DNA of 64,000 nt from Actinomycetota bacterium (lineage in GTDB: Bacteria > Actinomycetota > Acidimicrobiia > Acidimicrobiales > Ilumatobacteraceae), in the NCBI GenBank assembly GCA_039185545.1, contig JBCDAK010000001.1, positions 3,652 to 67,651 on the forward strand, written 5' to 3'. The notes under the pieces are model-generated. The model did no database searches and was not told where the DNA came from. It saw only the letters and a list, made by a program, of their open reading frames with translations. The position numbers and the translations under genes are program-made. Positions 2,464 to 59,650 of the stretch are shown here, one piece after another (the first letter of the stretch is position 1; each line of letters begins with the position of its first letter).

Positions 2464-5400
2464 TCAGGTCCCGTCGGACGGCTCGTCGTGTGGGTGATCG
2501 TCCCACCGGTCGAGGATCGGGCCGATCCGCGCCCAGAGATCGGTCACGTCGGGATGGCGGAACATCGATTCGTGATCGCCCGGTGTCGTCACCACGTCGA
2601 GTGAGCCCGCGACGTACTCCGACCAGTGGTAGTCCTCGGGTTGGTAGGGCCACATGAGGTCGGCCTTGATGACCGCGACGTCGAACTCGACCACCGACGG
2701 TCGATGGAGCAGGGCGACCTCGGTGAAGTGGTCGTACAGATCGCGAACCCCTTCCTCGAGTTGGTCGCGGAGCTCGGGTGGCACGGGCTCGGCGCCGTGT
2801 TCGAGTTGCGGACCGAGCAACTTCAGCAGTCGACCGCCGAATCGGTTCTTCAGGTACGGCATGGTCGCTCGTGGTCCGGCGGTCGCGACGTGACGGATGA
2901 CGTTCCAGCGCGACGACCAGCGCGGCAGGCTCATCGCTCCGGGTGGCACGCTGTCGAACAGCACGACGCCCCGCACCTCGTGGCCGAGCTCCTGGAGTCG
3001 CCGGCCCATGTCGAGCGCGATCAATCCCCCTCCGGAGAAGCCCCCGAGGAGGTGCGGCCCGTCGGTCTGGGCGGCGAGCGCCTCGACGTATCGCTCGGCC
3101 ATCGCCTCGATCGTCGGGTCGGGTTCGTCGCGATCGTCGATCCCGATCGCCTGGACACCGACCAACGGGCGTCGCTTCCGCATCAACCGCGCCAACGGCG
3201 AGAGGAACATCACATTGCCGCCTGCCCCGTGCACGACCGTGAAGGGCGTGCCCTCGCCGGTCGTGTTGAGTCGCACGAGCGTGCGCGGGGATCGGCGCGG
3301 CGGCGCGTCCGTGCGAGCACCGGTCGCCGCGGTCGCAGAGCTCACCATCCCGGCCGCGGCGCCATCGGCGTCGTCGGCCTCACCGGATCCGTGGACGTCG
3401 TCGACGCCGACCCGGTCATCGACATCGGGATCGGCGGTGCGCAGCACGGTGGCGAGCTCGTCGATCGTCGGCGCCTCGAGCAGCTCGTCGAGCGCGACGC
3501 GGACCCCGAGCTCGCGATTGATGCGGGCGATCATGCGGATGGCGATGAGTGAGTGGCCGCCGAGTTCGAAGAAGTCGTCGTCGGTGGCGACCGCGACGTC
3601 GAGCAGATCGGCCCACATGCGCTGCAACGCACCCGTGAGTCCGCCGGCGGGCGCGGGCGGTGGCGTCTCGTCGCCGTGTGCGTCGGCGTCGTCGGCCGCA
3701 CGATCGCGGAGTGACTCGAGGTCGACGGTGCTGACGATCAGCCGTTCTGCGCCGTCGTACAGCACACGTTCGAGCAGATCGCCCGCGTCGTCGGCGTGCA
3801 GACCGGCTCCCTCGGCGAGCGCGACGAACCTCGATGCGCCGCGGGGGACCCGCGACCGGCTGGTCCGTGGAACCGGCCCGCTGCGCAGCGACGCGCCCGG
3901 TTCGAGCCGACGGAGGACCAGACGGTCGACGTCGACGAGCGGCTCGCCGTCGACGGTCGTGATCGTGATGTCGACGACGACCCGCCGGTCGGTCCGTTCG
4001 ACCGCCCTCGCCGTGGCATCGACGGTCCCCGGAAGACGGCGGTGCCATCGGAGAGCGTCGAGCGACACGGGAACGAGGAGTCCGTCGAGGTCCGCAGGGC
4101 GGAGTGCTGCACCGAGGCCGACGGCGAGGTCGACGAGTGCGGGGTGGGCGTGCCAGTGGTCGGTGTCGCCCTCGAGATGCGATGGCAACGAGAGCCGGGC
4201 GCGGGCGACCTCGTCGGCGACCCTCCCGAGCTGGTCGGCAGCCCATCGCGGGCCGACGCGGAGCGACGCCTTCTGGGTCGACATCGGGTCGAACCCGGCG
4301 GTGAGATCGGCGAGGTCGAATCGCGTCGCGGAATCGGCCGATCCGGAGTCTCCGGCGCCGGGATCGCGACCGTCGACGGCATGCCGATCGGCGGAAGCGA
4401 CGGCCTGGGAGTGAGTGCGCCACCCCCGACCGAGACCATCGTCGCTCTCGACCTCGAGGTTCCACCGGCGATCGCCGTCTGGACGCACCGTCACGCCCAC
4501 GCTGACGATTCGATCGTCCGGCACGACGAGCGGGTCGATGAACAAGACGTCGGAGACCGTCGGTCGCTCGATCCCGGCGGCCGCACAGGCGGCGAGCATC
4601 AGCTCGAGGTGCCCGGTTGCAGGGAGCAGCGACGTGCCCGTGGCGGTCCGGTGCTCGCCGGCGACCCAGTCGTGTCGGGCGTCGAGTCGCCCGGCGATGC
4701 GCACCGCGCCGTCGTCGCCGGGAAGAGAGTGGCGAGCGGTGAGGACCGGGTGGTCGATCGGGTCGCCGTCGACGAGGCCGAGGCGGAGTACGCGTGCGGC
4801 GTCGGCGGCGAGGCCGATGCCGGCCCACGCGCCCGAGTTGAGCGTGACGACCCGGACTCGTCCCCTCCGGCCGATCGACGCATCGAGCACCGCGTTGGCA
4901 GCGACGTAGGCGACCTGTCCCTCGGCGCCGATGGTGGTACTCGTCGACGACAGCAGCAGCAGGAGGTGGCCGCCGACGGCGTCGAGGGCGGCGGCGAGCT
5001 CGAGGGCGGCGGTCGCCTTCGGTCGGATCACCCCGGCCCGAGTCTCGGGGTCGGAGAGAGCGATGAGCTGATCGTCGAGCGCGCCGGCGGCGTGGATGGC
5101 GCCGTCGACCGAACCGAACCGCTCGACCGTCCGATCGACGGCGTGCCGGACCGCGATCGGGTCGGCGACGTCGGCGACGAGGACCTCGACGTCGGCCCCG
5201 GCCGCGCGGAGGTCACGCACGCGGATGATGCGTCGGCTCGTCGGGTCGGCCGAGCCGTGCTGTGCGATCCAGGCGTCCCACTCGTCGTCCGGCGGGAGCG
5301 GCGACGACGAGGTGACCGCCAGACGGACGCCGTGGGTCACCGCCAGGTGGTGAGCGAACACGAATCCGACGTCACCGAGGCCTCCGGTGACCAGGTAGAC

Positions 5401-8400
5401 GCCGCCGGGGACGAACCGGGAGCCGTCGACGCCGGCACCCACGTCGGCCAATGTGTGGGGATCGTCGACACGCCGTCGCACCAGCTCGGGAACCACGCGT
5501 GAGTTCGCGTCGAGTGCCACGCGAGCGGTCTCGGCCACGAGTTCGTCGACGATGGCGGGGACCCGGCCGACGGTGTCGGGCTCGAGGTCGATCCAGGTGC
5601 TGGCCGTCCCGGCGAACTCCTGCGGTGCGACCATCACGGGTCCGGCGACGAGTGCGTCGGCGGGCCGCATGGCGGGACCGAACGCGTCGCTCGCGCCGAT
5701 GGTGATCGCTGCGAGCGACACACGTTCGTGGGCCAGCGACAGCTCGGCGAGCCGGTCGACCGCGTGGGTGGACCACCTGTCGATGGCGGCGTCGAGATCG
5801 TGATCGGGTCCGTCGCGTCCGATCAGGAGCAGCACGACGTCGTCGGCGCCGCGGAGCGCATCGACATCGCCGTCGGGCCACTCGACGACCGTCATGCCGC
5901 GTCGACGCAACTCGTCGGTAACCGCAGCGGCGAGCCGGCTCGTCGACGCAGCTCCGTCGACGATCCAGATCGACTCGGTGCGGCGGGCGGTCGACTCTCC
6001 GGCGGGTGCGCCCGTGATCCAGATCGGTTCCCAGAACCAGTCGGCCGAGTCGGGGATGCGACTGATCGACGGGGCCGCCGCGGAACCGGTCGTGACCCCG
6101 GTGACCACCGGACGGACCGTCGCGTCGCCGGGGTCGATCCAGTGGCGCGTGCGCTGGAACGGATACGTCGGCAGCCGCCGGCGAACTCGACCGTCGCCGA
6201 GCGGGGGTGTGGGAGGCGAGGGGACACCCGCTGCCCACATGGCCCCGAACGCACCGATCGAGTGGACGGTGTCGTCGATCGAGTCGTTCGGGTGCCGGAG
6301 CGCTGCGATGGCGGCGTGTGGGCCCGACTCGTGGTGCCGTGCGGCGGACGAGAGCGCGTGGCCCGGCCCCAGCTCGACACCGACCCACCGGCCACCGGTG
6401 CCGATCGTGGTGAGACAGTCGGCGAACCGAACCGTGCCGCGCAGGTGATCGACCCAGTACTGCGGATCGGTCGCCTGCTCCGATGAGATCCAGTCGCCCG
6501 TGAGATTCGACGGGTAGGGCGTGGCGGGCGCCGTGAGGCGGACCGCACGGACCGCGTCGTGGAATCGATCGAGAACCGGGTCGAGGATCGGGCTGTGAGC
6601 GGCAGCATCGAGCCGGAGCGGGTGCGCCGACACACCGTCGCCCTCGAGTTCGGCGGCGAACGACTCGATGAGGTCGTGGCGGCCGGCCACGACGCAGTCC
6701 TCCGTGGTGTTCACCACGGCGATGGCGAGGCCGGACGGCAGTCGGTCGAGGCACTCCTTCTCCGCCAGTCCCACCGACAGCATCCCGACGCCCTGCTCGA
6801 CCGCCGCCCCGGCCTCGGTCATCAGGCGACTGCGAGTGACGACCAGGCCGGTCGCGTCGTGGAGGTCGACGACGCCGGCGAGATGAGCGACCACGTACTC
6901 GCCGAGGCTGTGCCCGAGGAGCGCATCGGGTCGGGCTCCCCAGGCCTCCCACTGGCGTGCGAGAGCCACCGACGTGGCGAAGACCGCGGGGAGCGACACG
7001 TCCGCGCGGCGCAACTCGTCGGAGTCGGGGCGTCCGCCGCGCAGCAACGGGTCGAGATCGGGACCGTCGACGTCGCGCACCGATCGGATGATCGTGTCGA
7101 GCGTGTCGTGGAACACCTCGAAGCGAGTATCGAGGCCCTGGGCCATCGACGCGTACTGCGCGCCGCCGCCGGGGAACAGGAACACGAGGCGGGAAGGGTG
7201 CTCGTCGGCCCCTGACGTGAACGAGCGTCGGCGGTCGAGATCGCGCAGCTGGCCGGGTGCCGCACGTGTGTCGGTGACGGTCACGACGCGGCGATGAGCG
7301 TGAACGCGTCGCCCGGTGGCGAGCGTGTGCGCGACGTCGGCGAGTTCGAGGGCGGGCTCGCGCTCGAGATGATCGGCGAGGTCGGACTGCAGCGCGTCGA
7401 GTGCCACCGGGTTGACGGCCGAGAGGGCGAGGACGTGTTCCGGTGGTCCGGGCGCGCCAGCCGGTTCGTCGGGCGCCTGCTCGAAGATCGCGTGAGCGTT
7501 GGTCCCGCCGACCCCGAGCGAACTGACGCCCGCCCGGCGTGGACGGTCGCCGGGCCACGCGGATGCGTCTCCCGAGAGGACGAACGGCGAGCGATCGACG
7601 TCGAGGAGCTCGCTCGGACGCGTGTGGTTGGCGAGCGGGGGGAGCACCTGGTGGCGTAGCGCCTGCACGACCTTGATGGCGCTGGCGACGCCGGCAGCGG
7701 TGTCGAGATGGCCGATGTTGGGCTTCGTCGACGTGAGGCGGCAGAAGCCCGTCTCGTCGGTGGACGCGCGGAACGCCTCGGTCAGCGCGGCGAACTCGAT
7801 CGGGTCGCCGACGGCGGTGCCCGTGCCGTGCCCGTCGACGAGTTCGATGTCGCGCGCGCTCAGCCCGCTCACCGCGAGCGCCTCCTGGACGGCGTCGGCG
7901 TGTCCGTCGACGCTCGGTGCGAGGAAGCCGACCTTGCGCGAGCCGTCGTTGTTGACCGCGGTTCCCTTGATGACCGCCAGGACGGGATCGCCGTCCTGCA
8001 GCGCGTCGGTGAGCCGGCGGATGGCGAGCATGCCCGCGCCACTGGTGAGCACGGTGCCGCCCGATCGCTCGTCGTAGGCGCGGCACCGTCCGTCGGGCGA
8101 GAGGATCTCGCCGTCGCGATAGGTGTACCCGACGCCGTGGGGTACCTCGATCGTCGCGCCGCCGGCGAGTGCGAGGTCGCACTCGAAGCTCAGCAAGCTC
8201 TGCGCCGCCAGGTGGATCGCGACGAGTGAGGTCGAGCAGGCAGTCTGGACGCCGATGGACGGCCCGTGCAGGTCGAGCTTGTACGAGATGAAGGTCGGGA
8301 GGAAGTCCTTGTCGTTCCCGGTGTGACGGAGCAGGAACCACCCGATCCGGTCGACCAGGTCGGTCGTCATGAGGTTGTTGACGAGGTACGTGTTCATGCC

Positions 8401-8832
8401 GCACCCGGCGAACACGCCGATCGCCCCGTCGAACCGTTCGGGCACGATCGCAGCGCCCTCCAGCGCCTCCCATGCGCACTCGAGGAGGTGGCGATGCTGC
8501 GGGTCCATGATGGCGGCGTCGCGTGAACCGATCCCGAAGAACTCGGGGTCGAACAGGTCGACGCCGTCGAGCACGCCGGCGCGTGTCACGTACTCGCGAT
8601 CGTCGACCACCGCAGCCGGCACCCCGGCCTCGACCAGGAGGTCCGGGTCGAGATCGACCAGGCAGTCGTCGCCCGACACGACGCGCTGCCACAGTCGGTC
8701 GACGTCGGGTGCGCCGGGGAACCGCCCCGACATCCCGACGACGGCGAGGTCGGTCTCGGCCACCGCGTCGGCCCGGGCGGGCGCTTCGAGTCCCGCAGCG
8801 TCGACCTCGTCGCGCCGGCCCGTCGACGTCAC
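2464..8832 (-). CDS. Single-module type I polyketide synthase, KS-AT-KR(with inserted DH)-ACP-TE
   Basis: KS triad TACSTS/HGTGT/IGHLD; AT GHSLG with AAHS; KR GGLGDVG and GQVAYVAAN; DH HRTATGTSLLP and HPALVD; ACP GGHSL; TE GFSGG and PGDH. Confidence 0.95.
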   Translation of the reverse strand: MTSTGRRDEVDAAGLEAPARADAVAETDLAVVGMSGRFPGAPDVDRLWQRVVSGDDCLVDLDPDLLVEAGVPAAVVDDREYVTRAGVLDGVDLFDPEFFGIGSRDAAIMDPQHRHLLECAWEALEGAAIVPERFDGAIGVFAGCGMNTYLVNNLMTTDLVDRIGWFLLRHTGNDKDFLPTFISYKLDLHGPSIGVQTACSTSLVAIHLAAQSLLSFECDLALAGGATIEVPHGVGYTYRDGEILSPDGRCRAYDERSGGTVLTSGAGMLAIRRLTDALQDGDPVLAVIKGTAVNNDGSRKVGFLAPSVDGHADAVQEALAVSGLSARDIELVDGHGTGTAVGDPIEFAALTEAFRASTDETGFCRLTSTKPNIGHLDTAAGVASAIKVVQALRHQVLPPLANHTRPSELLDVDRSPFVLSGDASAWPGDRPRRAGVSSLGVGGTNAHAIFEQAPDEPAGAPGPPEHVLALSAVNPVALDALQSDLADHLEREPALELADVAHTLATGRRVHAHRRVVTVTDTRAAPGQLRDLDRRRSFTSGADEHPSRLVFLFPGGGAQYASMAQGLDTRFEVFHDTLDTIIRSVRDVDGPDLDPLLRGGRPDSDELRRADVSLPAVFATSVALARQWEAWGARPDALLGHSLGEYVVAHLAGVVDLHDATGLVVTRSRLMTEAGAAVEQGVGMLSVGLAEKECLDRLPSGLAIAVVNTTEDCVVAGRHDLIESFAAELEGDGVSAHPLRLDAAAHSPILDPVLDRFHDAVRAVRLTAPATPYPSNLTGDWISSEQATDPQYWVDHLRGTVRFADCLTTIGTGGRWVGVELGPGHALSSAARHHESGPHAAIAALRHPNDSIDDTVHSIGAFGAMWAAGVPSPPTPPLGDGRVRRRLPTYPFQRTRHWIDPGDATVRPVVTGVTTGSAAAPSISRIPDSADWFWEPIWITGAPAGESTARRTESIWIVDGAASTSRLAAAVTDELRRRGMTVVEWPDGDVDALRGADDVVLLLIGRDGPDHDLDAAIDRWSTHAVDRLAELSLAHERVSLAAITIGASDAFGPAMRPADALVAGPVMVAPQEFAGTASTWIDLEPDTVGRVPAIVDELVAETARVALDANSRVVPELVRRRVDDPHTLADVGAGVDGSRFVPGGVYLVTGGLGDVGFVFAHHLAVTHGVRLAVTSSSPLPPDDEWDAWIAQHGSADPTSRRIIRVRDLRAAGADVEVLVADVADPIAVRHAVDRTVERFGSVDGAIHAAGALDDQLIALSDPETRAGVIRPKATAALELAAALDAVGGHLLLLLSSTSTTIGAEGQVAYVAANAVLDASIGRRGRVRVVTLNSGAWAGIGLAADAARVLRLGLVDGDPIDHPVLTARHSLPGDDGAVRIAGRLDARHDWVAGEHRTATGTSLLPATGHLELMLAACAAAGIERPTVSDVLFIDPLVVPDDRIVSVGVTVRPDGDRRWNLEVESDDGLGRGWRTHSQAVASADRHAVDGRDPGAGDSGSADSATRFDLADLTAGFDPMSTQKASLRVGPRWAADQLGRVADEVARARLSLPSHLEGDTDHWHAHPALVDLAVGLGAALRPADLDGLLVPVSLDALRWHRRLPGTVDATARAVERTDRRVVVDITITTVDGEPLVDVDRLVLRRLEPGASLRSGPVPRTSRSRVPRGASRFVALAEGAGLHADDAGDLLERVLYDGAERLIVSTVDLESLRDRAADDADAHGDETPPPAPAGGLTGALQRMWADLLDVAVATDDDFFELGGHSLIAIRMIARINRELGVRVALDELLEAPTIDELATVLRTADPDVDDRVGVDDVHGSGEADDADGAAAGMVSSATAATGARTDAPPRRSPRTLVRLNTTGEGTPFTVVHGAGGNVMFLSPLARLMRKRRPLVGVQAIGIDDRDEPDPTIEAMAERYVEALAAQTDGPHLLGGFSGGGLIALDMGRRLQELGHEVRGVVLFDSVPPGAMSLPRWSSRWNVIRHVATAGPRATMPYLKNRFGGRLLKLLGPQLEHGAEPVPPELRDQLEEGVRDLYDHFTEVALLHRPSVVEFDVAVIKADLMWPYQPEDYHWSEYVAGSLDVVTTPGDHESMFRHPDVTDLWARIGPILDRWDDHPHDEPSDGT

Positions 8833-11800
8833 GAGCCGCCACCGCCGCGCCGCGACAGGGCGCGTCGTCGTCGAGCACCGCGCGCCGAACCGGAGTCGGC
8901 GGTCGGCCGGTCGGCCGAGGACCCGCTCGACGTGTCGGCCGCGCCGTTCGGCCGGGCCGCCGCCGGGACCTCCGCCCCGATCGTGCGGAGATGGGCGCCG
9001 AGCGTCCGGACGGTCGGGTAGCGGAAGACGTCGGTCAGCGCGATCGGTCCGGGAGAGCGCTCTTCGAGCTGGCGGAACACTCGCACCGCGAGGAGGGAGT
9101 GTCCGCCGATCTCGAAGAAGTTGTCGTCGAGGCCGAGTGGTCGGCCCAACGCGGCCGACCAGAGCGATGCCACGAGACCTTCGCTGTCGTCGTCGAACGC
9201 ACGGTCGACGAGGTCGGCCGTCGGCACCGTGGCCTCGCCGTCGACGACGTCGTGAGGAAGGGCGGCGGGAAGGGCGTTGCGGTCGACCTTCCCGTTGGGG
9301 GTCAGTGGCAGGACGTCGATCGGTCGGATGACGTCGGGGATCATGACCGACGGCAGCTCGGCGGCGGCGTGGGCCCGGAGGTCGTCGACCTCGAACCGAC
9401 CCGTCGACACCACGAACGCAGCGAGGATCGGGTCGATCGAGTCGCCACGGGGCACGACGATCGCCTGCACCACATCAGGGTGGCGGTCGAGCACCGACTC
9501 GATCTCTCCGAGCTCGATCCGGTGCCCGCGGATCTTCAGTTGGTTGTCGGACCGGCCGGCGAACTCGACCGTCCCGGCCGAGGTGAGACGGACGATGTCA
9601 CCAGTCGCGTACGTCCGACCGAGTGCGTCGCGATCGACGAAGCGTTCGGCCGTGAGCTCGGGGCGATCGTGGTAGCCGCGGGCGACGCCGAGTCCGCCGA
9701 TGTGCAGTTCCCCGTAGCCGCCGACCGGAAGCGGCCGACCGGCGTCGTCGAGCACGGTCACGGTGGTGTTGGCGATGGGCCGGCCGATCGGGATCGAGCC
9801 GTCGGCGACCGTGTCGATCTCGTGCACCAGCGACCAGATCGTGGTCTCGGTGGGCCCGTACATGTTCGTGAAACGGCCCGAGAGGATCTCGCGGAGCTGT
9901 CGAGCCAACGCGACCGGCAGCGCTTCGCCGCCGAGCAACAGGTGGCCCACGTCGGCGAGCGATCGTCGGTCGGCCGGGTCGGCGAGGAGCATCGCGGCGA
10001 GCGACGGCGTGCACTGGAGATGTGTGACGCCGTGACGTCCGACGAGTTCGGCGACCGTCTCGGCCCGGTCGGGATCGGAGGTTCGGTGAGGCGCGATCGT
10101 CCGCGTGTCGTTCTGATCATCGGCGCCGGAGCGAACCCGCTCGTCGACGAGCCGGCGCGTCTCGGCCAGCCGGTCGAACGACCCGAGCACGAGGTCGGTG
10201 TCGACGCCGAAGTCGATCAGGCAGGCGACCTCGTCGACCCCGACGGCGGCCACCCGGGCGATGACGTCAGCGGCGTCTTCGGGCGTTCCGAACAGTCCGC
10301 TGGTGTCGAGGTAGCGGGAGGCGGCCATGTCGAGCAACTGGTCCATCTCGTCGTCGGTGAGCGACTCGAACGCGGCGTCGTCGGCAGCTCCCGAGCCGGC
10401 GAAGGTGGGAAAGGAGGACGCCATGTTGCGGATGAGTCCGACGGCCGTCCCGAGGTACGCCTTCATCGGATCCCGCGCCGCCTCGACGGCGGAGTCGCGG
10501 TCCGCGTCGAGATACGTGTGGAGCATCAGCGTGACGTGGCCCTCGCCGGGATGTCCCGCCGCCCGCCACGCATGTCGGTATCGCTCGAGGTTGGCCGCGA
10601 GCTCGTCGATGTTCTGCCCGAGCAGGTGCGTCAGCACGTTCAGGCCGAGCGCGCCCGCTCGCTCGAACGTGGCGGGGGTTCCCGCCGACGTGAGCCACAC
10701 GGGCAACTCCTCCTGGACCGGTCGCGGCAACGTCGACGTCGAAACGGGGGAGCCGTCGTGACCGACGAGGTCGACGGCCTCGCCTCGCCACAGGGAGCGG
10801 ACCGTGTCGATGAGGTGCGGGAGATGCTCCCGTGCCCGCCCGTACTCGGACGGGTTGAGAACGAAGTCGTTCGGCTGCCATCCCGGCGCGAACGAGATGC
10901 CCACGCGGCCGCCCGACAGGTTGTCGACCACCGACCACTCCTCGGCGACCCGTACCGGTGAGTGGAGGGGGAGCACCACGCTTCCCGCCCGGATGGCGAC
11001 TCGGGAGGTGGTGGCCGCGACGGCAGCACCGACGACGCTCGGGTTCGGGTACGCCCCGCCGAACTCGTGGAAGTGGCGCTCCGGGGTCCACACCGCTTCG
11101 AATCCGTTCGCGTCGGCGAACCGGGCACCCTCGAGCAGAAGGCGATATCCGTCGACACCGGCCGAGGCGTCTCCGGCGGCGAAGTAGAAGAGGCTCATCG
11201 ACACCGGTCGAGTCGGTACGGGGTCGTGCGATGCCGGTGCGCGGACGGCTCGGGCCGTGGGAGCCGTCGTCACGGATCGGGCGCCGCTGTCCGCCTTGAG
11301 GACGACGTGGAAGCCACGAGCCAGGGTCCACAGGAGCTCGAGGACCGAGATGTCGAAGGACAGACTGGTGACGGCGAGCCACACGCCGGGCGGATCGTGG
11401 TCGATGACCTCGTCCATCGCCGCGAAGAAGTTCACGACGTTTCCGTGCTCGAGCATCACGCCCTTGGGGACACCGGTCGACCCCGAGGTGTAGATGACGT
11501 AGGCGAGGTCGTCGGCGGTGTGGTCGGTGTGGGCGGCGTGCGCGGATCCCGGACCGTCAAGGTCGCCGGCCGTCTCCGTGGTGGCAGTGGGATCGACGTC
11601 GGAGGGATCGACGACGGTGAGCCCCTCGGTGACGAGCGACATCTCGTCGCCGGCCACCAGGATCGTCAGCTCGGAGTCGGCGACCATGTGCTGGAGGCGA
11701 TCGGTCGGATACGCAGGGTCGAGCGGAACATACGCGGCGCCGGTCCGGAGCGTCGCGAGCACCGATGTGACGAGTTCCACGCTGCGGGGCACCGCCAGAC

Positions 11801-13649
11801 CGACCCGGGTGCCGGGGCCGGCACCGAGGCCGCGGAGACGCGCCGCGAGCCGGTCGGCTCGTGCGACGAGATCGCCGTACGACACGGTGGAGTCGCCCCA
11901 GGTGAGTGCTGCCGAGTCGGGTGTCGCCGTCGCCTGCTTCCAGACGAGCCCGTCGACCGTGGCGGTCGTGTCGATGTCGACGCGGGTGTCGTTGAGCGTC
12001 TCGAACGCTTCACGATCGGCGAGTGTGACGACGTCGATCTCGGCCGGCGACGTGTCCGCACCGAGCGCTGCGAGCACCGACTCGACCCTCTCGAGCCAGC
12101 CGCGGGCGACGTCGCCGGGGACGTCGGATCGGTGCCGCAGTCGAAGCCGGCCGGCGGCGACATTGAACCAGAGGAGCGTCGACTCGCCGGGGCGATCCAA
12201 GTCGACGTGCTCGCCGATCCGGAGGAGCACCCGTGGATCGGCGGGTGTGACCTCGGGTCGGCGTCCGATGAGGTCGGCGAGGAACGGGCCGAGCTCGGTG
12301 ATCTCGGCGAGCTCGGCCTCGACGGCCGCGAGGAGGTCGGCGGCGGCGACGTGGTCGACCCGGAGGTCTGCGATCGGGGCGCGGACGAGCGGCCCGAACG
12401 ACGCAATGGTGTCGGCGGTGCTCCGGTCGGGGACGACGGCGAGGTGCGCCCGGTCGGCACCGGCGCTGCGGGCGAGCGTCAGCGCGATGGCGGCGACCGC
12501 CTCGGCGTTCGTGCCGACCGACACCTCGCCGAGATCGATCCACGAGCGTGACGCGACCGACAGGTCGGAGGTCGAGTCGACGATCTCGGCGAGTTCGGTG
12601 AGCGATGTGACCGGATCGAGTCGGGAGAGTCGCTGCGCCCATGCGTTCTCGTGACGGGCCGAACGTCGATCGAGCGCGGCGAATCGCTCGACGGTCGAGG
12701 TCGGGGTCGGATCGAGTCGGTCGCCGATGCCGAGCGCGGCGTCGGCCATCAGCTCGGCTGCATCGATGATCGAGCCGTCGAGCGCCCGCAGCGCGAGCTC
12801 GATCTCGCCGCCGAGCGTCGTGAGTCGGATCCGGTCGCCTCGAGCGTCGACGACGGTCGCAGGAGGCCCTGAGGGTGGAGCGGAGGGCGCACCGGCGGTC
12901 ACGGACGACGAGTGAGCGGCCACCCAGGACTCGCCGATGCGGAGGAGAGGCACTCCGATCCGGTTGGCCGACAGTCCGCCGAGATCGAGTGCTCGGACCA
13001 GTCGGTCGATGTCGACGGCGGCTGCCGACGGGTCGAGGATGCGCGCCGGTCGATCGACCCGGAGGAACGTCGTCGATGCGCGATCGGGTTGGGGGGAGCG
13101 ATCCACGGACCCGTCGGCGATCGCTCGCGCGAGGTCGGGGAACGACGAAAGCGCCGCTTCGTAGCAGCGCGCGTTGAGGGAGAACGCGGTCTCGTCGTCC
13201 GCGATCGCGAACTCTCGGACCGTCGCGATGTCGCCGCGGTCGACGTTCGACGACATGTGGTGCCAGGTGATGGCGTGGTGTCGGCGGTCGTCGAGGAGGG
13301 CCCAGGAGGTCACGTTGAGACCGACCAGATCGGGGAGCGGCCCGTCGTGGAAGTTCAGTGCGAGGTCGGCCCGCGCGAGCAGTGCGTCGGGCACGATCCG
13401 GAGGTGCGCGATGGACATCAACACGTCGACCTCGCCGTCGAGACCGACGTCGGCGAGGTCGGACGCGATGTCTCCGTCGGACCGGACGACCGGGATCCCC
13501 AGCTCGTCGGCGAGCCGGGTGACGCGCGGATGGACGGTGGCCATCCCGACGACGTCGATGCCGTGGGCGCGGGCGATCTCGACGCACTGGCCGGTGAGCG
13601 GTTCGTCGCCGATGACGATGGCGCGCTTCGTCGGACGGATCGACTGCAT
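8829..13649 (-). CDS. NRPS starter protein: formyltransferase - degenerate C-like spacer - adenylation domain interrupted by a luciferase-like monooxygenase - PCP
   Basis: Formyltransferase LNFHDGPLP and VDRGD; A motifs YVPLDP, YTSGSTGVPKG, FDIS, NMYGPTETT, GELHIGG, YATGD, GRSDNQLKIRGHRIELGEIE, NGKVDR; LLM SLFYF, AVWTPERHF, GGAYPNP, GSVVLPLH; PCP GGHSL. The stop overlaps the PKS start (8829-8832). Confidence 0.93.
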   Translation of the reverse strand: MQSIRPTKRAIVIGDEPLTGQCVEIARAHGIDVVGMATVHPRVTRLADELGIPVVRSDGDIASDLADVGLDGEVDVLMSIAHLRIVPDALLARADLALNFHDGPLPDLVGLNVTSWALLDDRRHHAITWHHMSSNVDRGDIATVREFAIADDETAFSLNARCYEAALSSFPDLARAIADGSVDRSPQPDRASTTFLRVDRPARILDPSAAAVDIDRLVRALDLGGLSANRIGVPLLRIGESWVAAHSSSVTAGAPSAPPSGPPATVVDARGDRIRLTTLGGEIELALRALDGSIIDAAELMADAALGIGDRLDPTPTSTVERFAALDRRSARHENAWAQRLSRLDPVTSLTELAEIVDSTSDLSVASRSWIDLGEVSVGTNAEAVAAIALTLARSAGADRAHLAVVPDRSTADTIASFGPLVRAPIADLRVDHVAAADLLAAVEAELAEITELGPFLADLIGRRPEVTPADPRVLLRIGEHVDLDRPGESTLLWFNVAAGRLRLRHRSDVPGDVARGWLERVESVLAALGADTSPAEIDVVTLADREAFETLNDTRVDIDTTATVDGLVWKQATATPDSAALTWGDSTVSYGDLVARADRLAARLRGLGAGPGTRVGLAVPRSVELVTSVLATLRTGAAYVPLDPAYPTDRLQHMVADSELTILVAGDEMSLVTEGLTVVDPSDVDPTATTETAGDLDGPGSAHAAHTDHTADDLAYVIYTSGSTGVPKGVMLEHGNVVNFFAAMDEVIDHDPPGVWLAVTSLSFDISVLELLWTLARGFHVVLKADSGARSVTTAPTARAVRAPASHDPVPTRPVSMSLFYFAAGDASAGVDGYRLLLEGARFADANGFEAVWTPERHFHEFGGAYPNPSVVGAAVAATTSRVAIRAGSVVLPLHSPVRVAEEWSVVDNLSGGRVGISFAPGWQPNDFVLNPSEYGRAREHLPHLIDTVRSLWRGEAVDLVGHDGSPVSTSTLPRPVQEELPVWLTSAGTPATFERAGALGLNVLTHLLGQNIDELAANLERYRHAWRAAGHPGEGHVTLMLHTYLDADRDSAVEAARDPMKAYLGTAVGLIRNMASSFPTFAGSGAADDAAFESLTDDEMDQLLDMAASRYLDTSGLFGTPEDAADVIARVAAVGVDEVACLIDFGVDTDLVLGSFDRLAETRRLVDERVRSGADDQNDTRTIAPHRTSDPDRAETVAELVGRHGVTHLQCTPSLAAMLLADPADRRSLADVGHLLLGGEALPVALARQLREILSGRFTNMYGPTETTIWSLVHEIDTVADGSIPIGRPIANTTVTVLDDAGRPLPVGGYGELHIGGLGVARGYHDRPELTAERFVDRDALGRTYATGDIVRLTSAGTVEFAGRSDNQLKIRGHRIELGEIESVLDRHPDVVQAIVVPRGDSIDPILAAFVVSTGRFEVDDLRAHAAAELPSVMIPDVIRPIDVLPLTPNGKVDRNALPAALPHDVVDGEATVPTADLVDRAFDDDSEGLVASLWSAALGRPLGLDDNFFEIGGHSLLAVRVFRQLEERSPGPIALTDVFRYPTVRTLGAHLRTIGAEVPAAARPNGAADTSSGSSADRPTADSGSARGARRRRALSRRGGGGS

Positions 13650-14906: not shown

Positions 14907-15024
14907 GCGGCGCGAACACTAGCGATCGGCGGCCGGCGGTCGTGGGAGTTTCGTGCCCGCTCGTGCCAGAAGCGCGTCGTCCCCGCCGCGGACCAGCCGA
15001 TGACCAACCGCGGAACGGTCGGGA

Positions 15025-16269
15025 TCAGATGTCGGCCGGTTCGGCGAGGAACGGTCGAACGAGACCGCCGGGGTGGCGGAGGACGGCCTTCGCGAACGAC
15101 AGCGACGGCCGTGGATCGTCGAGTTGGAACGAGGCGCCGACCGTCGGCTCGACGGCGTACCGGAGCGCACCGCGGACAGCAGCGACGCGGTCGGGTCCGA
15201 GCACCGTGCGAACCGCGAGGCCCGTGTAGAGGTGGATCCCGGTGGTCCAACTCGTCGGTGTGCGCCGGGAGGGCCGAGGGTCTGGCACGTCGACGGTCGC
15301 GACGTCGCGGAGCCACATCGCCGGCAGGTCGTTGCCCCGGCCGATGTCGAGCGCCACCTGGCCGTAGGTGCGCGGGTTCAGGTCGATGGCCCAGTGGTCT
15401 CCGGTCGACGGATCGAACAGCACCTCGAACTCGAAGATCCCGTGGCCCAGGATCTGTCGGGCGGCCTCGATGGCCGCCTCGGTGAACGGCTGCTCGTCGG
15501 CGGTCTCGAAGCGGATGCCGATGCCGAGTCCGGGAGGCCACTGGTGGGTCTTGCGGGAGTGGCCGACTCCGTGGACCGCACCGTCTCGCGCGAGATAGCC
15601 GGTGATGCTGATCACTTCGAGGCCTCGCCGTTCCACGTACTCCTGGACCAGTGGCCACCCGAGCTCCGGGTCGTGGCGAAGTGCTCCGCGGCTGTGCTCG
15701 TCGACCTCGTGCGGGGTGAACACCCGCTCGGCCTCGTCGAGATCGCGCACCACGTCGCCTCGATGGACGCCGACCCCCACGTGTGATCGCGGCTTCGCCA
15801 CCACGGGCAACCCGACCGCCTCGACCGCGTCGATCGCGTCAGCCGTGGTCGTGGGCGCCCGCGTGTGGGGTCCGGGGAACCCGACGCGGTCGAGCGCTCG
15901 GGCGAATCGGTCCTTGAACAGACAGTCGAGCAGTCCGTCGATCGGCGGGAGTCCGAGGTCTCGATCGATCGACGGGTGAGTCGCTGCCTCCGCGGCGTTG
16001 AACGCGACGTAGTCGGAGGTCGGCGCCACGAGGTCGATGTCGCCTCTCCCCAACCGGTCGACCAACCACTCGGTGAACTCGTCGCTCCACAGGACGGTCG
16101 GACACTCCTCGAACGCATCGACGAACCGCGACCGACGCGTCATCACGTCGGGCCGGTGTCCGAAGACGATCGTGGGGACGTCCCGACGGCCGAGTGACCG
16201 GGCGAACGCCAGGCCGGTCGGGAGGTCGGCGTCGAAGACGGCGACGGTCGGCAGACCGCGGCGACTCAC
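15025..16269 (-). CDS. ATP-grasp carboxylate-amine ligase (D-aspartate ligase-like)
   Basis: This is the real C-terminal part of the 1220-aa track ORF. GTG at 16269 overlaps the upstream TGA. Motifs: GLAFARSLG, LVAPTSD, FKDRF, PVVAKP, LVQEYV, GIFEFE, IDLNPR. Confidence 0.8.
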   Translation of the reverse strand: MSRRGLPTVAVFDADLPTGLAFARSLGRRDVPTIVFGHRPDVMTRRSRFVDAFEECPTVLWSDEFTEWLVDRLGRGDIDLVAPTSDYVAFNAAEAATHPSIDRDLGLPPIDGLLDCLFKDRFARALDRVGFPGPHTRAPTTTADAIDAVEAVGLPVVAKPRSHVGVGVHRGDVVRDLDEAERVFTPHEVDEHSRGALRHDPELGWPLVQEYVERRGLEVISITGYLARDGAVHGVGHSRKTHQWPPGLGIGIRFETADEQPFTEAAIEAARQILGHGIFEFEVLFDPSTGDHWAIDLNPRTYGQVALDIGRGNDLPAMWLRDVATVDVPDPRPSRRTPTSWTTGIHLYTGLAVRTVLGPDRVAAVRGALRYAVEPTVGASFQLDDPRPSLSFAKAVLRHPGGLVRPFLAEPADI

Positions 16270-17816
16270 GAGGCGGCGTCGACGGGTGTCGCCGCGTGTT
16301 CGTTCGATCCCGTGGTCTCGGCGCCGACTGCGGGCGGGTTCGTGGCGTCGAGTGGGACGAAGTGGTCGCGACGGATCATGTCGCCGAAGGTCTCGCGATC
16401 CTGGGCGACGGTGACCCCGTCCGGATCGACGACGACGATGGCCGGGCGAGGGAACGAGAACGTCGTGGAGAACGGCACGCAGTAGGCACCGGTGTCGAGG
16501 ATGGCCAGGCGATCCCCGGTCCGGACCTCGGGCAGTCGCCAGTTGTTGTAGAGCACGTCGGCCGGCGTGCAGATGGGACCGGCGATGCGGTACGACCGAT
16601 CGGCCGGACCGAGCGGATCGCCGGCGTGGAGGAGGCCGTGGTACTCGTTCGACACCGCTTCGGCGATGTTGATCCCGGCGTCGGCGATGACGTGCCAGGG
16701 CTCGCCGTCGGCCTTGACGTCGTGCACGGTGGTGATGAGCAGCTGGGTGTCGGCGGTGAGAGCGCGACCGGGCTCGAGGATCGCCCGCGGGACGGTGAGG
16801 CCACGCGACCCGAAGTGCTGTTCGAGCATCCGCGTCGCCGACTCGCCGGCGCCGCGCACCGACACGAAGTCGTCGGTGGACGGCGGCAGGAGGTCGGTGC
16901 CGTAGGCCCGGTTGGCCCGGAAGTCGATCGCCGGGATGGCGCCGACGGTCGCGCAGGCGAGGCTGCCGCCGAGATCGAGCATCTCCGGCGACCAGCCGGT
17001 CGCCTCGGTGACCGCATCGCAGAACGCGAGCACGTCGTTCACGTACGCCTCGTACTCGGCGCGGGTCCGCATGGTGACGCCACGGTGGAAGTGGAGTGCC
17101 TTCAGGTCGAGGTGCTCGGCGGCGAGTGCCGTGCGGATGGCTCCGAGCGCCTCGTCGGACCACGAACGGATGCCGAACTGGCCGGCCCACATGCCGGGCA
17201 GCGCGATGCGGACGCCCACGGTCGCGCTGCGGCCCTCGTCGGCGGCGATCGCCTCGATGACGTCGATCTCGCTCGCCGAGTTGGCGTTGATCAGCAGGAT
17301 CCCGCGTTGGATGGCGCCGCGCACGGACTCGGCCGACTTGACCGGTCCGTTGTAGATGGTGCGCTCGGCCGGGACGCCGAGCTGGTGTGCCATCCACAAC
17401 TCGTAGGCCGAGATGACCTCGGCTCCGATGCCCGCTCGGTGCATCCGCTCGAGCGCCGCGGGGATGGGATTCGTCTTGTACGAGTAGTAGACGTCGGCGG
17501 GTCCGGCGGCGACGTCGGCGAGTCGGGCGTCGAGTCGGGCTCCGTCGATGACGTGGAGCGGCGATCCGTACTCGTCGGCGAGATCGCCGAGCGGGCGGCC
17601 GTGCAGCAGAAGTCCCCGATCGTCGGACTCGAGGCCGTGCTCGGAGAGCACCGGGTCGGGGCGCCGTGGGCGCCGCTCGGCCCACTTCGCGCCCAGCTGA
17701 TCTCGAACGAGTGCCTTCGCTCGACCTGCGATGTCCATCTTCCGCCTCGATCCTGTCGTGTCTGGGTCTGCCGTGTACCGGGGAAGTGGGTCGAGTGCCG
17801 CCAACCCGTCGGACAC
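16266..17816 (-). CDS. PLP-dependent group IV (diaminopimelate decarboxylase-like) amino acid decarboxylase; start may be the ATG at 17738
   Basis: YGSPLHV, YSYKTN (PLP Lys), [37 protein letters not shown]. Confidence 0.88.
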
Positions 17817-18411
17817 GATACCCGTGTGTCATTCGACGGTCGCTCCGTGGGCGGTACGGTTCGCGCTCGTGCTCGGTCGGTTCGTGACGCTGTTCGACGA
17901 CGTGCTGCGCGTCGCGCGTGCCCGCTGGTTCCTGCGCTCGGCGAGCCAGCTCGGTCCGCGGGTCCGTCTGCGCGGGCGGCCGCGGGTCGCCGTGAAGGGC
18001 GATCTCGTCATCGGTGACCGCGTCCAGTTCGAGTCGGCGGTCGCCCGCCTCGAGATCGGGGTGGGTCCGGGCGCCCGCATGGAGATCGGTGAGCGGACCC
18101 TCGTCAACTACGGGTGTTCGATCGTCGCGCTCGACCGCGTGACGATCGGCGAGCGCTGCCTGATCGGCACACACTGTCTCGTCATGGACACGCCGTTCCA
18201 CGGCGTCGACCCCGATCGACGGCTCGATCCCGATCCTCCCGAGCCGGTCACCATCGGCGACAACGTGTGGCTCGGGGCGCGGGTCGTCGTGACGCCGGGC
18301 GTCACGATCGGTGACGACTCGGTCATCGGGATCGGGAGCATCGTCACGAAGGACATCCCGCCGCGCAGCCTGGCGGTGGGTGCACCGGCCGAGGTGGTTC
18401 GCACCCTCTGA
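17731..18411 (+). CDS. Hexapeptide-repeat O-acyltransferase (maltose/galactoside acetyltransferase family); true start probably downstream (e.g. GTG 17884)
   Basis: Left-handed beta-helix repeats: [44 protein letters not shown]. Confidence 0.88.
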
Positions 18412-18571: not shown

Positions 18572-19114
18572 ATGGGCGGGCTCGGCGACCACGATCCGGC
18601 GCGGGCCCTACGCGCCGACGCCGCCCGGTGGCTCGTACCGCAACAGTTCGGCGATCCGGCGGCGGTGACGCCGCTGGTGCTGCTCAAGCTCCTCGTCCGG
18701 CACCCACCTCTCCGCGCGATGGCCTGGTTCCGGCTCGGGAGCCTGTGCTCCCATCGCGGGGTCCGGGGGGTTCCCTCGTGGGTCCAGCGTCGCCTGCTCC
18801 GCCTCTACGGCCTCGAGCTGGCGGTCGGGGCGTCGATCGGCGGCGGCCTCTACATCGCTCATCCGGTCGGATGTGTGCTGAATGCCGAGTCGATCGGTGA
18901 CGACGTCACGGTGATCTCGCAGGTCACGTTCGGGACCCGCACCGACGGACGATGGCCGCGTGTGGCCGACCGGGCTTTCTTCGGTGCCGGTGCTCGCATC
19001 CTCGGTGGGATCGAGATCGGCGAGGAGGCTCAGATCGGGGCCAACGCCGTGGTCCTCGACGACGTGGCCCCGGGGTCGGTCGTCGTCGGCGTCCCCGCGC
19101 GGCCGGTGGCGTGA
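18572..19114 (+). CDS. CysE/WcaB-like hexapeptide O-acetyltransferase
   Basis: IGGGLYIAHPVG, IGDDVTV.SQVTFG, GAGARILGGIEIG, IGANAVV, VGVPAR. It lacks the large N-terminal domain of true CysE. Confidence 0.88.
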   Translation: MGGLGDHDPARALRADAARWLVPQQFGDPAAVTPLVLLKLLVRHPPLRAMAWFRLGSLCSHRGVRGVPSWVQRRLLRLYGLELAVGASIGGGLYIAHPVGCVLNAESIGDDVTVISQVTFGTRTDGRWPRVADRAFFGAGARILGGIEIGEEAQIGANAVVLDDVAPGSVVVGVPARPVA

Positions 19115-25595: not shown

Positions 25596-26675
25596 TCAGT
25601 CGGCGAGCTCGGCGACCGCCGCGACCGATCGGGCCAGACGCTCGGCGTACACGTCGATGTCGGCGTGGGCGACGACCCACCGTCGTGCCTCGTCGCCGAG
25701 TCGTCGCCGTTCCGCGTCGTCGTCGATCAGGTCGACGATGGCGGATCGGAGGGCCTCGACGTCCGCCGGGGGGACGTACCGGCCGGTCGACCCCTCGACG
25801 ATCGTGTCGGTCTGGCCTGTTGTGCGCGTGCAGACCACCGCTCGCGACATCGCCATGGCCTCGAGGATCGTGGTGATGCCCGCCTGGAACTCGACCTCGA
25901 CGAGCGGCATCACGACGAATGCCGAGCGGGCGTAGAGTTCGCGCAGTTCGAACAGGTCGAGCCGTCGGATCTCGACGTTGTCGGGGATGTGCTGTCCCTC
26001 GGTGGAGTCGGCCTTGGTCGACCACGGGCTGGCGGCCGCGATGACCACGTCGACGTCGAGGCCCTCGACCGCTGCGAGCAGCGTCGGGTAGTCGCGCCGC
26101 TCGAGTCCCGCACTCGAGATCACCGGCCGTCCGCCCTCGGCCGGTGTGGCGACCTCGGACTCCGCGAAGAAGTCGGTGTCGACCATGAAGGTGGTCAGCT
26201 CGACCCGGTCGGCGTCGACGCCCACGTCGTCGCGGATGATCTCGGCCTGGCGTGAGCTGTACACGAGCCAACGGTCGATCGCCCGGGCCAGACCGCCGAA
26301 CCGGATCACCCTCCGCTTCGGGCTGGTCGACACGATGTGCACGATCATGGCGTGCTGCGGTCGACGTCGGGCGAGGCGGCACAGTGCAGCGAATGGCAGA
26401 CCGACCTGTTCGCCGTCGGTGAGGATCACGTCGTATCGGGACCGGTGCCTCCAGCAGTACCACGCGAGGAGTGGGCCGGGTCCTGAGCGTTCGAGCAGAC
26501 GTCCGAAGGGACCGGACGCGCGTCGGGCCTCGACCGTGTCGACCACGTCGGCGCCCATGGCGTCGGCCATGACGCGGTAGTCGGCGCGCGGTCGACGTCG
26601 ATCGGCGACGTCGGCGTCGAGTGTCTCGGGGATGGGACCCGAGACCGTGAGCAGGACCCGCGGGCGGTCACCCAC
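25596..26675 (-). CDS. Glycosyltransferase family 4
   Basis: SAGLERRDY, FVVMPL...FQAGITTILEAMAMSRAVV, VPPAD. Confidence 0.9.
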   Translation of the reverse strand: MGDRPRVLLTVSGPIPETLDADVADRRRPRADYRVMADAMGADVVDTVEARRASGPFGRLLERSGPGPLLAWYCWRHRSRYDVILTDGEQVGLPFAALCRLARRRPQHAMIVHIVSTSPKRRVIRFGGLARAIDRWLVYSSRQAEIIRDDVGVDADRVELTTFMVDTDFFAESEVATPAEGGRPVISSAGLERRDYPTLLAAVEGLDVDVVIAAASPWSTKADSTEGQHIPDNVEIRRLDLFELRELYARSAFVVMPLVEVEFQAGITTILEAMAMSRAVVCTRTTGQTDTIVEGSTGRYVPPADVEALRSAIVDLIDDDAERRRLGDEARRWVVAHADIDVYAERLARSVAAVAELAD

Positions 26676-28278: not shown

Positions 28279-28417
28279 GATTCGCCGAATGTAGCGGCCT
28301 CGCCGGGATGCCGTGGGTCGCTTCCGGTGCACCGGTCGCTCGATCGGCTCGGCTCGGATCACCTCGGAGAGCGCGACGTGCGCACGATCCGTCCACATCT
28401 CTCGTAGGGTTCGGCCG

Positions 28418-36522: not shown

Positions 36523-36600
36523 GGTCGTTGCTCCCTCCACGGCTGCGGCTGCATGGTCGGGTCGCAGTCCCGATTCGGCCGCCCATCCGCGTATCGGTCG

Positions 36601-36614
36601 GTGAGAGACGTCAC
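36601..36614. promoter_or_regulatory. GTGA-N6-TCAC site (CRP/GlxR-like core) in a divergent intergenic region
   Basis: GTGAgagacgTCAC, followed by GTGA-N7-TCAC (36615-36629) and GTGACG...CGTCAC (36636-36660). Confidence 0.4.
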
Positions 36615-36823
36615 GTGAGCGAAGTTCACCGCCGCGTGACGAATTGATTTCGAACGTCACCGAACCGTAGCAGTTTCGTCATGGAGTCATCGCCGGCGTC
36701 GTCAACTGTCCACATCTCGACAACACCTCCTGCCGGGCGCTCGCGTGCCGGCCCCGTCGTTCGGAGTACAGTTCCGCACCCGATGGGCGAGCTTCCCCCG
36801 GCCTCTCCCGGCGGTGACCCGTC

Positions 36824-56118: not shown

Positions 56119-56144
56119 CGTCGTGCCTCGTCTCGTGAGCGGGG

Positions 56145-56609
56145 TCAACCCGTTCGTTGGCGGGTCTCGCGCTGGTACTGCTCGGCGAGTTCGTCGACGC
56201 TCTCGGGCAGCTCGCCCGATGTCAGGTCGGCCAGCGTGACGGTCTCGAGCACGTTGCGCAGGCTTCCGCGGATCGCCATCCAGACGCGCGGCAACGATTC
56301 GGCGGGCGGGGGATACGACAGGTCACGGAGGCTCTCGTCGTGCACGTCGGCCAACGGGCCGTCGATGGCCCGGAAGACGTCGGCGATCGTGATGGCGTCG
56401 GGCGGTCGTGACAGGGTGAAGCCGCCGTCGGGACCGCGCTTCGACCGCACGAGCTCGGCCCGTTTGAGATCGCGCAGGATGTCGAGGAGGTACTTGAGCG
56501 AGATGTCCTGGCCGGTGGCGATGGCCTCGGCCTTCATGGCCGAGCCGTCGGCCGTCGACAAGGCGGCCGCCGCACGGACGGCGTTGTCGACCCGCTCGCT
56601 GATCCGCAT
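56145..56609 (-). CDS. Rrf2 family transcriptional regulator (no Cys; CymR-like)
   Basis: ATG 56609. IS.KYL.DIL.DL....LV.S.RG..GGF.L.RPP..IT. The protein contains no cysteine. Confidence 0.9.
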
Positions 56610-59463: not shown

Positions 59464-59650
59464 CGGAGCAGTGTACGGACGCCCGTGCGCCGCACACGGA
59501 GAGCGGCGAACGATCACCGATCGCACGATCAGCCGGGGATCTGCGCCGAATCCAGTCACCCAACGTGTCCGCTGATCGACGTAGAGAGGTTCTTCACGAT
59601 AAAGTCCGCCGTGCGCAACGCAACCGCAACATTCGAAGTACGGTCATCCC

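Follow-up and report, generated by a model that had tools for sequence, protein, structure and literature searches.

Commonly described interrupted adenylation (A) domains of nonribosomal peptide synthetases (NRPSs) carry a methyltransferase between core motifs A8 and A9, the usual site, or exceptionally between A2 and A3, and reviews also count monooxygenase inserts among the tailoring domains nested in A domains (PMC8949500). In MtaG (myxothiazol) and MelG (melithiazol), both of the order C-A-MOX-A-T-TE, the monooxygenase (MOx) that splits the glycine A domain is proposed to hydroxylate carrier-bound N-acyl-glycine (PMC11411415; PMC10204066), and hydroxylation of the alpha-carbon of the added glycine leads to a terminal amide (PMC11411415). 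The FMO domain of SolF (solanimycin) makes alpha-hydroxyglycine, such domains generally hydroxylating alpha to the thioester (PMC10204066; PMC9765074), and its insert of ~500 aa is naturally missing in some Dickeya strains (PMC9765074). Here we describe an NRPS gene encoded in a stretch of 64,000 nucleotides (the window) of contig JBCDAK010000001.1 from an Actinomycetota bacterium, the A domain of which is interrupted by a luciferase-like monooxygenase (LLM) within what is apparently a starter module undescribed so far, consisting of a formyltransferase (F) domain, half a condensation (C) domain, the LLM-carrying A domain (A[LLM]) and a peptidyl carrier protein (PCP) domain.

Two further relatives of the LLM have been assigned a reaction: the Ox domain of PuwE is held responsible for the 2-hydroxyl group of the puwainaphycin fatty acid, that is, for alpha-hydroxylation of a thioester (PMC4219810), and the FMN monooxygenase domain of MxgE for an alpha-oxidation (PMC13638107). 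An earlier note on this DNA had called the chemistry of the family largely unknown, which was too pessimistic, since MtaG/MelG, SolF and the PuwE Ox domain have all been described as alpha-hydroxylating carrier-bound thioester units. The same note supposed that the LLM oxidises the tethered intermediate; judged by analogy, this would agree with every characterised relative (MtaG/MelG, SolF, PuwE and MxgE). It also named the A2-A3 and A8-A9 methyltransferase inserts as the commonly studied ones, as does the review literature (PMC8949500). [quoted passage not shown] Nor did the literature searches return an in vitro study of an LLM-split A domain, anything on TIGR04020/Atu3671, on a formyltransferase with an LLM and adenylation in connection with polysaccharide, or on formylation with a monooxygenase domain and glycine; a search aimed at monooxygenase domains and hydroxyglycine was likewise empty.

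The interrupted adenylation domain and its insert

The NRPS is encoded by one uninterrupted open reading frame (ORF) with a GC content at third codon positions (GC3) of 0.86 in a window of ~70% GC, and its start codon fits the N-termini of its homologues. Its parts, from the N-terminus to the C-terminus, and the motifs located by motif search in the A domain are as follows.

8829..13649, minus strand: NRPS gene, 1606 aa, initiation-type, of the order F - C-lobe remnant - A(N) - LLM - A(C) - PCP (ORF list, translation, Pfam/NCBIfam)
12750..13649, minus strand: F domain, aa 1-300, with Fmt/ArnA-like N and C subdomains and catalytic Asn99, His101 and Asp137 (PF00551, E 2.7e-10)
11955..12749, minus strand: condensation-domain remnant, aa ~301-565 (~265 aa), C-terminal lobe only, without the HHxxxDG N-lobe (profile of 14 homologues)
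11283..11954, minus strand: N-terminal part of the A domain, A(N), aa 566-789, with motifs A1-A4 and specificity residues D766, I767 and L770 (AMP-binding profile 2-239)
11208..11282, minus strand: linker 1, aa 790-814, of low conservation and of varying length in the alignment, predicted disordered (AlphaFold2 pLDDT <50 at aa 790-811, model residues 236-257)
10155..11207, minus strand: LLM insert of the MupA/Atu3671 family, aa 815-1165, with the invariant PERHF at aa 856-860 (TIGR04020, Foldseek, conserved columns)
10068..10154, minus strand: linker 2, aa 1166-1194, conservation 0.17, predicted disordered (AlphaFold2 pLDDT <50 at aa 1181-1192, model residues 627-638)
9270..10067, minus strand: C-terminal part of the A domain, A(C), aa 1195-1460, with motifs A5-A10 and specificity residues Q1212, L1239, G1241, M1263, I1271, W1272 and K1454 (TIGR01733 profile 193-409, AMP-binding_C)
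8970..9197, minus strand: PCP domain, aa 1485-1560, with phosphopantetheine Ser1518 in an intact FFEIGGHSL motif (PF00550, E 4.7e-13)
11460-11501, minus strand: motif A3, YVIYTSGSTGVPKG, aa 717-730
11346-11357, minus strand: motif A4, FDIS, aa 765-768
~10002-10031, minus strand: THLQCTPS of GVTHLQCTPS, aa 1207-1216, where the A core resumes
minus strand, aa 1237-1244: LLLGGEAL
9846-9866, minus strand: motif A5, NMYGPTE, aa 1262-1268

All of motifs A1 to A10 are intact, as is the PCP serine. Pfam also matched Formyl_trans_N (aa 56-169), Bac_luciferase (aa 819-1139), AMP-binding_C (aa 1382-1454) and PP-binding (aa 1493-1554), and it detected no thioesterase (TE) domain within the NRPS protein. 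The A3 and A4 motifs, the LLM and the resumed A core (THLQCTPS, GGE, NMYGPTE) were all found where the earlier note had read them, within this single ORF. The AMP-binding profile of Pfam matches the A domain in two stretches (E 2.1e-85), the first of which (aa 570-787) stops at profile position 239 of 384, and the amino-acid adenylation profile TIGR01733 of NCBIfam resumes at profile position 193, at aa 1187. The insert (aa 790-1194) begins ~22 residues past A4 and ends ~68 residues ahead of A5, and the insertion site thus lies exactly between A4 and A5, FDIS being at 765-768 and NMYGPTE at 1262-1268, which bears out the site proposed before.

The insert was placed in the TIGR04020/MupA-like family by an HMM scan, as the earlier note had suggested from its letters: TIGR04020 scored 476.9 bits against a cutoff of 244.45, and the LLM is complete, because the match spans positions 1-339 of the 341 of the profile. 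Bac_luciferase (PF00296) matched with an E value of 1.7e-48. Scores of this size, like those of the A-domain profiles, are well outside what chance would give. The nearest solved structure is PDB 6KET, with 361 bits in the sequence search and, in Foldseek, a TM-score (normalised to the target, as throughout) of 0.88-0.90 at 48% identity. The LLM is the best conserved region of the NRPS, with a column identity of 70-86%, and its PERHF block is invariant among homologues. Family membership together with this conserved block suggests that the enzyme is FMN(H2)-dependent. A sequence search of the PDB found no chain in which an A domain and this type of LLM occur together; the LLM is represented there by PuwE Ox as an isolated domain only. 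No flavin-reductase domain was detected in the ~35 ORFs scanned across the window, in line with what the earlier note had remarked, nor consistently in 11 related loci; since no dedicated flavin reductase is encoded nearby, we presume that a housekeeping reductase supplies the cofactor.

The specificity code of the A domain, DILQLGMIWK, is read from both sides of the LLM, code positions 235, 236 and 239 standing ahead of the insert and code positions 278-517 behind it. Because the code residues flank the insert on both sides, both halves of the A domain are needed for the substrate pocket. The pattern DILQ[VLI]G[MLV][IV]WK was found in all 116 full-length homologues (116/116). We take DILQLGMIWK to be a glycine code, the Stachelhaus glycine code being DILQLGLIWK, with which it matches at 9 of 10 positions, and the A domain is predicted to be glycine-type on this ground.

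Removing the insert in silico (aa 793-1192) left a remainder that aligned as one HMMER domain, end to end, with uninterrupted A domains, best with LgrA module 2 (query 7-497). On this alignment the A4 helix is succeeded by a strand and then by the surface loop that harbours the insert. With 58 homologues as input, AlphaFold2 modelled aa 555-1470 at a mean pLDDT of 86.5, disorder being confined to the two linkers. In Foldseek, whole uninterrupted A domains superposed on the model across the insert (TM 0.75 for 4D56, 0.71 for 8WWW and 0.65 for 1AMU, over ~900 alignment columns), to which both halves must contribute, because one half alone could not give such values. The A halves are therefore predicted to reassemble into one canonical A fold from which the LLM hangs on two flexible linkers. 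The earlier note had proposed such a model as a check, and the two non-complementing half-A fragments that it considered as the alternative were not seen in silico. Taken together, the code, the insert-deleted alignment and the AlphaFold2 and Foldseek results predict that the split A domain is a working A domain.

The starter module, its partner PKS and their distribution

Besides the glycine code, the earlier note had overlooked the N-terminal formyltransferase, the half C domain, the coupled PKS and the polysaccharide locus. Of the catalytic residues of the F domain, Asn99 and His101 never vary among the homologues, and Asp137 is kept in 115 of 116. In Foldseek, the AlphaFold2 model computed for aa 1-570 (pLDDT 92.8, pTM 0.90) gave TM-scores of 0.76-0.82 to the formyltransferase domain of ArnA and to Met-tRNA formyltransferases. 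Pfam run on the single sequence of aa ~301-565 gave no match. When a profile of 14 homologues of this region was used instead, it matched the C domains of Txo2, Txo1, McyB, EntF and CDA-PSI (E 2e-14 to 1e-7), but in each case just their residues ~177/250-470; the assignment to the C-lobe comes from the sequence profile, because the top 50 Foldseek hits of the N-terminal model are formyltransferases only. The remnant is kept throughout the F-type family and resembles a fossil of an elongation module that serves as a C-A platform. In the simplest reading, we infer a C-A[MOx]-PCP elongation module in which the catalytic C N-lobe was swapped for a formyltransferase. As predicted from its domains, the module would be a bifunctional, in fact trifunctional, NRPS starter module.

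An assembly chimera is excluded because independent assemblies (120 listed homologue clusters) share the same architecture and metagenome reads support the region: public marine metagenome runs, the only runs in which the window was found, contain up to 88% of the k-mers of the region. A recent mobile insertion of the LLM was rejected as well, because GC3 is uniform and the insert is common to several phyla.

A protein search over 5.8 billion proteins gave, among the candidates scored, 487 matches at E <= 1e-50. All of the 120 matches listed (120/120) contain the formyltransferase, AMP-binding and LLM domains, measure ~1500-1650 aa and are 39-57% identical to the query; among them, the few without PP-binding are mostly shorter (1300-1420 aa) and appear truncated. 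Their sources, again among the matches listed, are Ilumatobacter (the closest, at 56%), Acidimicrobiales, Ramlibacter, Burkholderiaceae, Acidobacteria, Gemmatimonadaceae, Pyxidicoccus, Rhodobacter and Paracoccaceae, to which a GTDB scan added Acanthopleuribacter, Pelagimonas, Roseovarius and Ruegeria. That scan (one genome per species) used generic A-domain peptides as query and returned 80 loci, mostly ordinary A domains with ~10 carrying an LLM, and is thus unfit for prevalence statistics.

The NRPS is translationally coupled to a PKS gene downstream of it.

2464..8832, minus strand: partner PKS, 2122 aa, KS-AT-KR-DH-T-TE, its start overlapping the NRPS stop by 4 nt (Pfam, active-site motifs)

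The ketosynthase (KS) carries the active residues Cys199, His335 and His375, and the acyltransferase (AT), ketoreductase (KR), carrier and TE domains carry the motifs GHSLG, GGLGDVG, GGHSL (PCP-like) and GFSGG, respectively. The order KS-AT-KR-DH is PfaA-like, with the dehydratase (DH) behind the ketoreductase, and the carrier has GGHSL instead of the GxDS motif of acyl carrier proteins; the AT specificity motif, AAHS, differs from the classic malonyl and methylmalonyl motifs. A colinear PKS adjoins the NRPS in 11 of 12 distinct loci (34-54% identity over ~2100 aa), and most of the 12 also carry glycosyltransferases, WecG, Wzy_C or a PPTase. As a conserved pair, NRPS and PKS recur in at least six phyla. 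The exception, an Acidobacteria metagenome scaffold (L085:10001-14653), has no PKS within 10 kb and lies beside genes for dTDP-sugar biosynthesis and polysaccharide export; its NRPS may act without a PKS or with one encoded elsewhere.

The A[LLM] cassette was also found in ordinary C-A-PCP elongation modules of Streptomyces aureus NRRL B-2808 (L009), of a Polyangia metagenome-assembled genome (MAG; L080) and of a Thermoanaerobaculia MAG (L008). The insertion point is identical in all three, after RGFxVV and before HxVTHLQCTPS, their code, DILQxGM[IV]W, is the same as that of the query, and A(N), LLM and A(C) are each 47-58% identical to the query, a level like that of F-type relatives from other phyla. 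The glycine-type A[LLM] behaves as one evolutionary cassette common to different module types, which speaks for a shared chemistry that acts on the glycyl unit of the module itself.

Two side observations concern this cassette. In L009:3893-12040, L080:3395-9271 and L008:3-4118, the glycine A domains are doubly interrupted, by the LLM at A4-A5 and by a methyltransferase that splits AMP-binding_C (A8-A9), which suggests hydroxylation and methylation of one glycyl unit. We know of no description of such a double interruption by an LLM and a methyltransferase. In Corallococcus llansteffanensis (L068:2-17470, ORF residues ~1747-2700), an LLM 46% identical to that of the query lies inside a decayed A shell with PEKP in place of FDIS, A halves only 26-29% identical and the specificity code lost, so that the A scaffold appears to be kept only for holding the monooxygenase.

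Within the window, the NRPS-PKS pair is surrounded by glycan genes coding for GT4, GT2 and WecG glycosyltransferases, a Bac_transf priming transferase, Wzz, Wzy_C and a Wzx-type flippase. Further neighbours code for two hexapeptide acyltransferases, a pyridoxal phosphate (PLP)-dependent decarboxylase, GFO/IDH/MocA oxidoreductases and sulfate-activation and sulfotransferase proteins, and no PPTase homologue was found in the window. The decarboxylase, of the ornithine/diaminopimelate/arginine type, and the two hexapeptide-repeat acyltransferases lie near the NRPS (16266-17816, minus strand; 17731-18411 and 18572-19114, plus strand); the set recalls the acyl-CoA ligase and decarboxylase pair of exosortase-A exopolysaccharide loci (weak TIGR03098 match). 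The sulfation genes code for a CysN-type GTPase fused to an adenosine phosphosulfate kinase, a CysQ-like phosphatase and two sulfotransferases (52110-54788, 55114-56148 and 58498-59559, minus strand; 62948-63949, plus strand), and the locus probably makes a sulfated glycan.

A second thiotemplated system in the locus consists of a stand-alone KS (41828-43027, plus strand) followed directly by an NRPS of 1914 aa with the order C-A-PCP-C-PCP-TE (43029-48773, plus strand). Between the GT4 and decarboxylase genes, 14919-16265 holds no convincing gene; a plus-strand frame at 15004-16194 has a coding-like GC content by codon position, an in-frame stop at 15784-15786 and no Pfam match, and may be a pseudogene or a novel pair of small proteins. 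Five large ORFs with a strong coding signal (GC3 0.84-0.90) also had no Pfam match (26668-28614, minus strand; 31371-33245, plus strand; 33273-34448, minus strand; 34567-36660, minus strand; 59651-61564, plus strand).

Proposed pathway and alternatives

The reading that we hold to be the probable one, if by a modest degree, is that the glycine-type A[LLM] starter loads, N-formylates and alpha-hydroxylates glycine and hands it to the PKS. The A domain would adenylate glycine and load it onto Ser1518 of the PCP, and the F domain would then N-formylate Gly-S-PCP from N10-formyl-tetrahydrofolate (THF), replacing the N-acylation performed by the C domain in MtaG, MelG and SolF. Using O2 and reduced FMN, with flavin from a housekeeping reductase, the LLM would hydroxylate the alpha-carbon of the tethered N-formylglycyl thioester. 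The KS of the coupled PKS would take over the unit for one malonyl-type extension, keto-reduction and dehydration, followed by release or transfer by the TE, and the product would probably be placed on, or used for, the cell-surface glycan of the surrounding glycosyltransferase, Wzx and Wzy genes.

Several points weigh against this reading. The glycine assignment relies on the specificity code, and checking it against a solved structure was uninformative, as the glycine-activating LgrA module 2 has another code. The closest solved relative, PuwE Ox, works on a PKS-bound chain instead of glycine. How the LLM is oriented towards the A core is predicted without confidence (pTM 0.60), and so is the access that the PCP arm would have to its active site. 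Which of formylation and hydroxylation comes first, where the flavin originates and what is finally made are all inferred. No RNA runs with the window sequence were found among public runs.

The relation to PuwE Ox leads to an alternative that we regard as unlikely, in which the LLM targets the chain after its extension on the PKS carrier, hydroxylating it at C2 in the way suggested for PuwE Ox, and the NRPS supplies N-formylglycine only. The LLM is 48-57% identical to PuwE Ox, which is assigned the 2-hydroxylation of a PKS-bound acyl chain, the genes of NRPS and PKS almost always lie side by side with translational coupling, and the PKS carrier has the PCP-like GGHSL motif. However, plain elongation modules of NRPSs conserve the glycine-type A[LLM] as one cassette, its A halves and LLM equally diverged; where an LLM within an A domain has been studied (MtaG/MelG and SolF), the glycyl unit of that same module is the target proposed; and the family member L085 has no adjacent PKS.

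About equally improbable, in our view, is that the hydroxylation is cryptic, the N-formyl-alpha-hydroxyglycyl hemiaminal collapsing to formamide and a glyoxylyl-S-PCP that serves as the PKS starter. The hydroxylated glycine of MtaG/MelG is proposed to split in this way into an amide and a carrier-bound alpha-keto acid (glyoxylate), and the formyl group would here stand in for the upstream acyl chain. Collapse is not obligatory, however, as the alpha-hydroxyglycine of SolF persists into solanimycin B, and it would be wasteful to spend formyl-THF only to discard it as formamide; the sequence offers nothing that separates retention of the hemiaminal from its collapse.

Very improbable is a catalytically dead LLM, one with another cofactor or chemistry (F420-dependent reduction) or a structural or dimerisation element: the superfamily does include F420-dependent oxidoreductases, seen as weak PDB matches and frequent in actinobacteria, the probable host group, and a flavin reductase was not found nearby, but the insert scores far above the cutoff of the FMN-dependent family TIGR04020, is the most conserved part of the protein (PERHF invariant within its 70-86% column identity), is kept in 120 of 120 relatives listed and occurs in Proteobacteria, Myxococcota, Acidobacteriota and Gemmatimonadota, which are mostly not known F420 users.

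Returning to the loading, formylation and hydroxylation of glycine by one module, a further extension of this reading is tentative, and we would sooner doubt than assert it: the NRPS and the KS-AT-KR-DH-T-TE protein might be an ancient two-enzyme pathway across phyla, including the Roseobacter cluster, that makes an N-formyl-alpha-hydroxyglycine-derived C4 unit attached to or priming a surface glycan, and no diffusible antibiotic. If so, a thiotemplated assembly line would form part of envelope biogenesis, and the alpha-hydroxyl group made by the LLM could be a handle for glycosylation or for cryptic C-N cleavage. Recognition of the module also yields a prediction for the product of the Roseobacter cluster, namely a glycine starter, N-formylation, alpha-hydroxylation and one ketide extension, and it ties that cluster to polysaccharide biosynthesis. 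With F, A, LLM and PCP in 1606 aa and very many natural variants, the protein is a compact single-module example, suited to the study of how an insert of 400 residues is accommodated by the core of an A domain (Acore) and how one carrier arm serves three active sites.

Comparison with known systems

Methyltransferase-interrupted A domains such as those of TioS, TioN and ColG resemble the present one in having a tailoring domain spliced into an A-domain loop (PMC8949500; PMC10127204). They differ in the insert and its site, a methyltransferase dependent on S-adenosylmethionine (SAM) at A8-A9 (Asub) or A2-A3 versus the LLM at A4-A5 (Acore) here, and an interrupted-A structure has been solved for the methyltransferase type only. 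Among solved structures, PuwE Ox (PDB 6KET, [quoted passage not shown]) comes closest to the insert, with which it shares the TIGR04020-type family, but it lies between an aminotransferase and a C domain, outside any A domain, and acts on a beta-amino fatty acyl chain. LgrA of linear gramicidin (F-A-PCP) shares the N-terminal formyltransferase fused to an A-PCP starter and gives the best overall PDB sequence matches. Its F domain joins the A domain directly, and this A domain is uninterrupted and loads valine, whereas here F and A are separated by a C-lobe, and the LLM interrupts the A domain.

The Rhodobacterales loci L001, L006 and L007 correspond to the conserved Roseobacter cluster in their genes, carrying PKS-GT2-NRPS, with a PPTase detected in L001 and L007, while the NRPS-PKS pair alone was detected in the Ruegeria locus L012. 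All four encode full-length NRPS homologues of 39-41% identity with the identical F-C-lobe-A[LLM]-PCP order, as well as a colinear PKS; their equation with the Roseobacter cluster is based on gene content, not on accession numbers. The window holds an NRPS, a PKS and several glycosyltransferases; it differs from that cluster in having no PPTase that we could find, in holding the pair within a far larger polysaccharide and sulfation locus, and in coming from a marine bacterium of high GC content with its nearest relatives in Ilumatobacter (56% identity).

LLM-split A domains have reportedly been known from sequence since the myxothiazol cluster, and the insert of MtaG is likewise said to lie between A4 and A5. 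MtaG and MelG, compared by description, are similar to the NRPS described here in that one polypeptide holds a glycine A domain with a luciferase-type monooxygenase dividing it. Theirs is a terminal elongation module with a full C domain and a TE that gives a terminal amide; the NRPS of the window is a starter with a formyltransferase and half a C domain, has no TE of its own and passes its unit to a PKS. SolF (A-P-C-A-ox-P) combines an A domain predicted to be specific for glycine with an FMO/ox domain, its insert acting as a removable cassette, but it is an elongation module of a trans-AT PKS/NRPS antibiotic pathway, with neither an F domain nor a glycan-locus setting. The interrupted-A design is thus already known from MtaG/MelG and SolF, and what the present locus adds to it is the context of a starter module.

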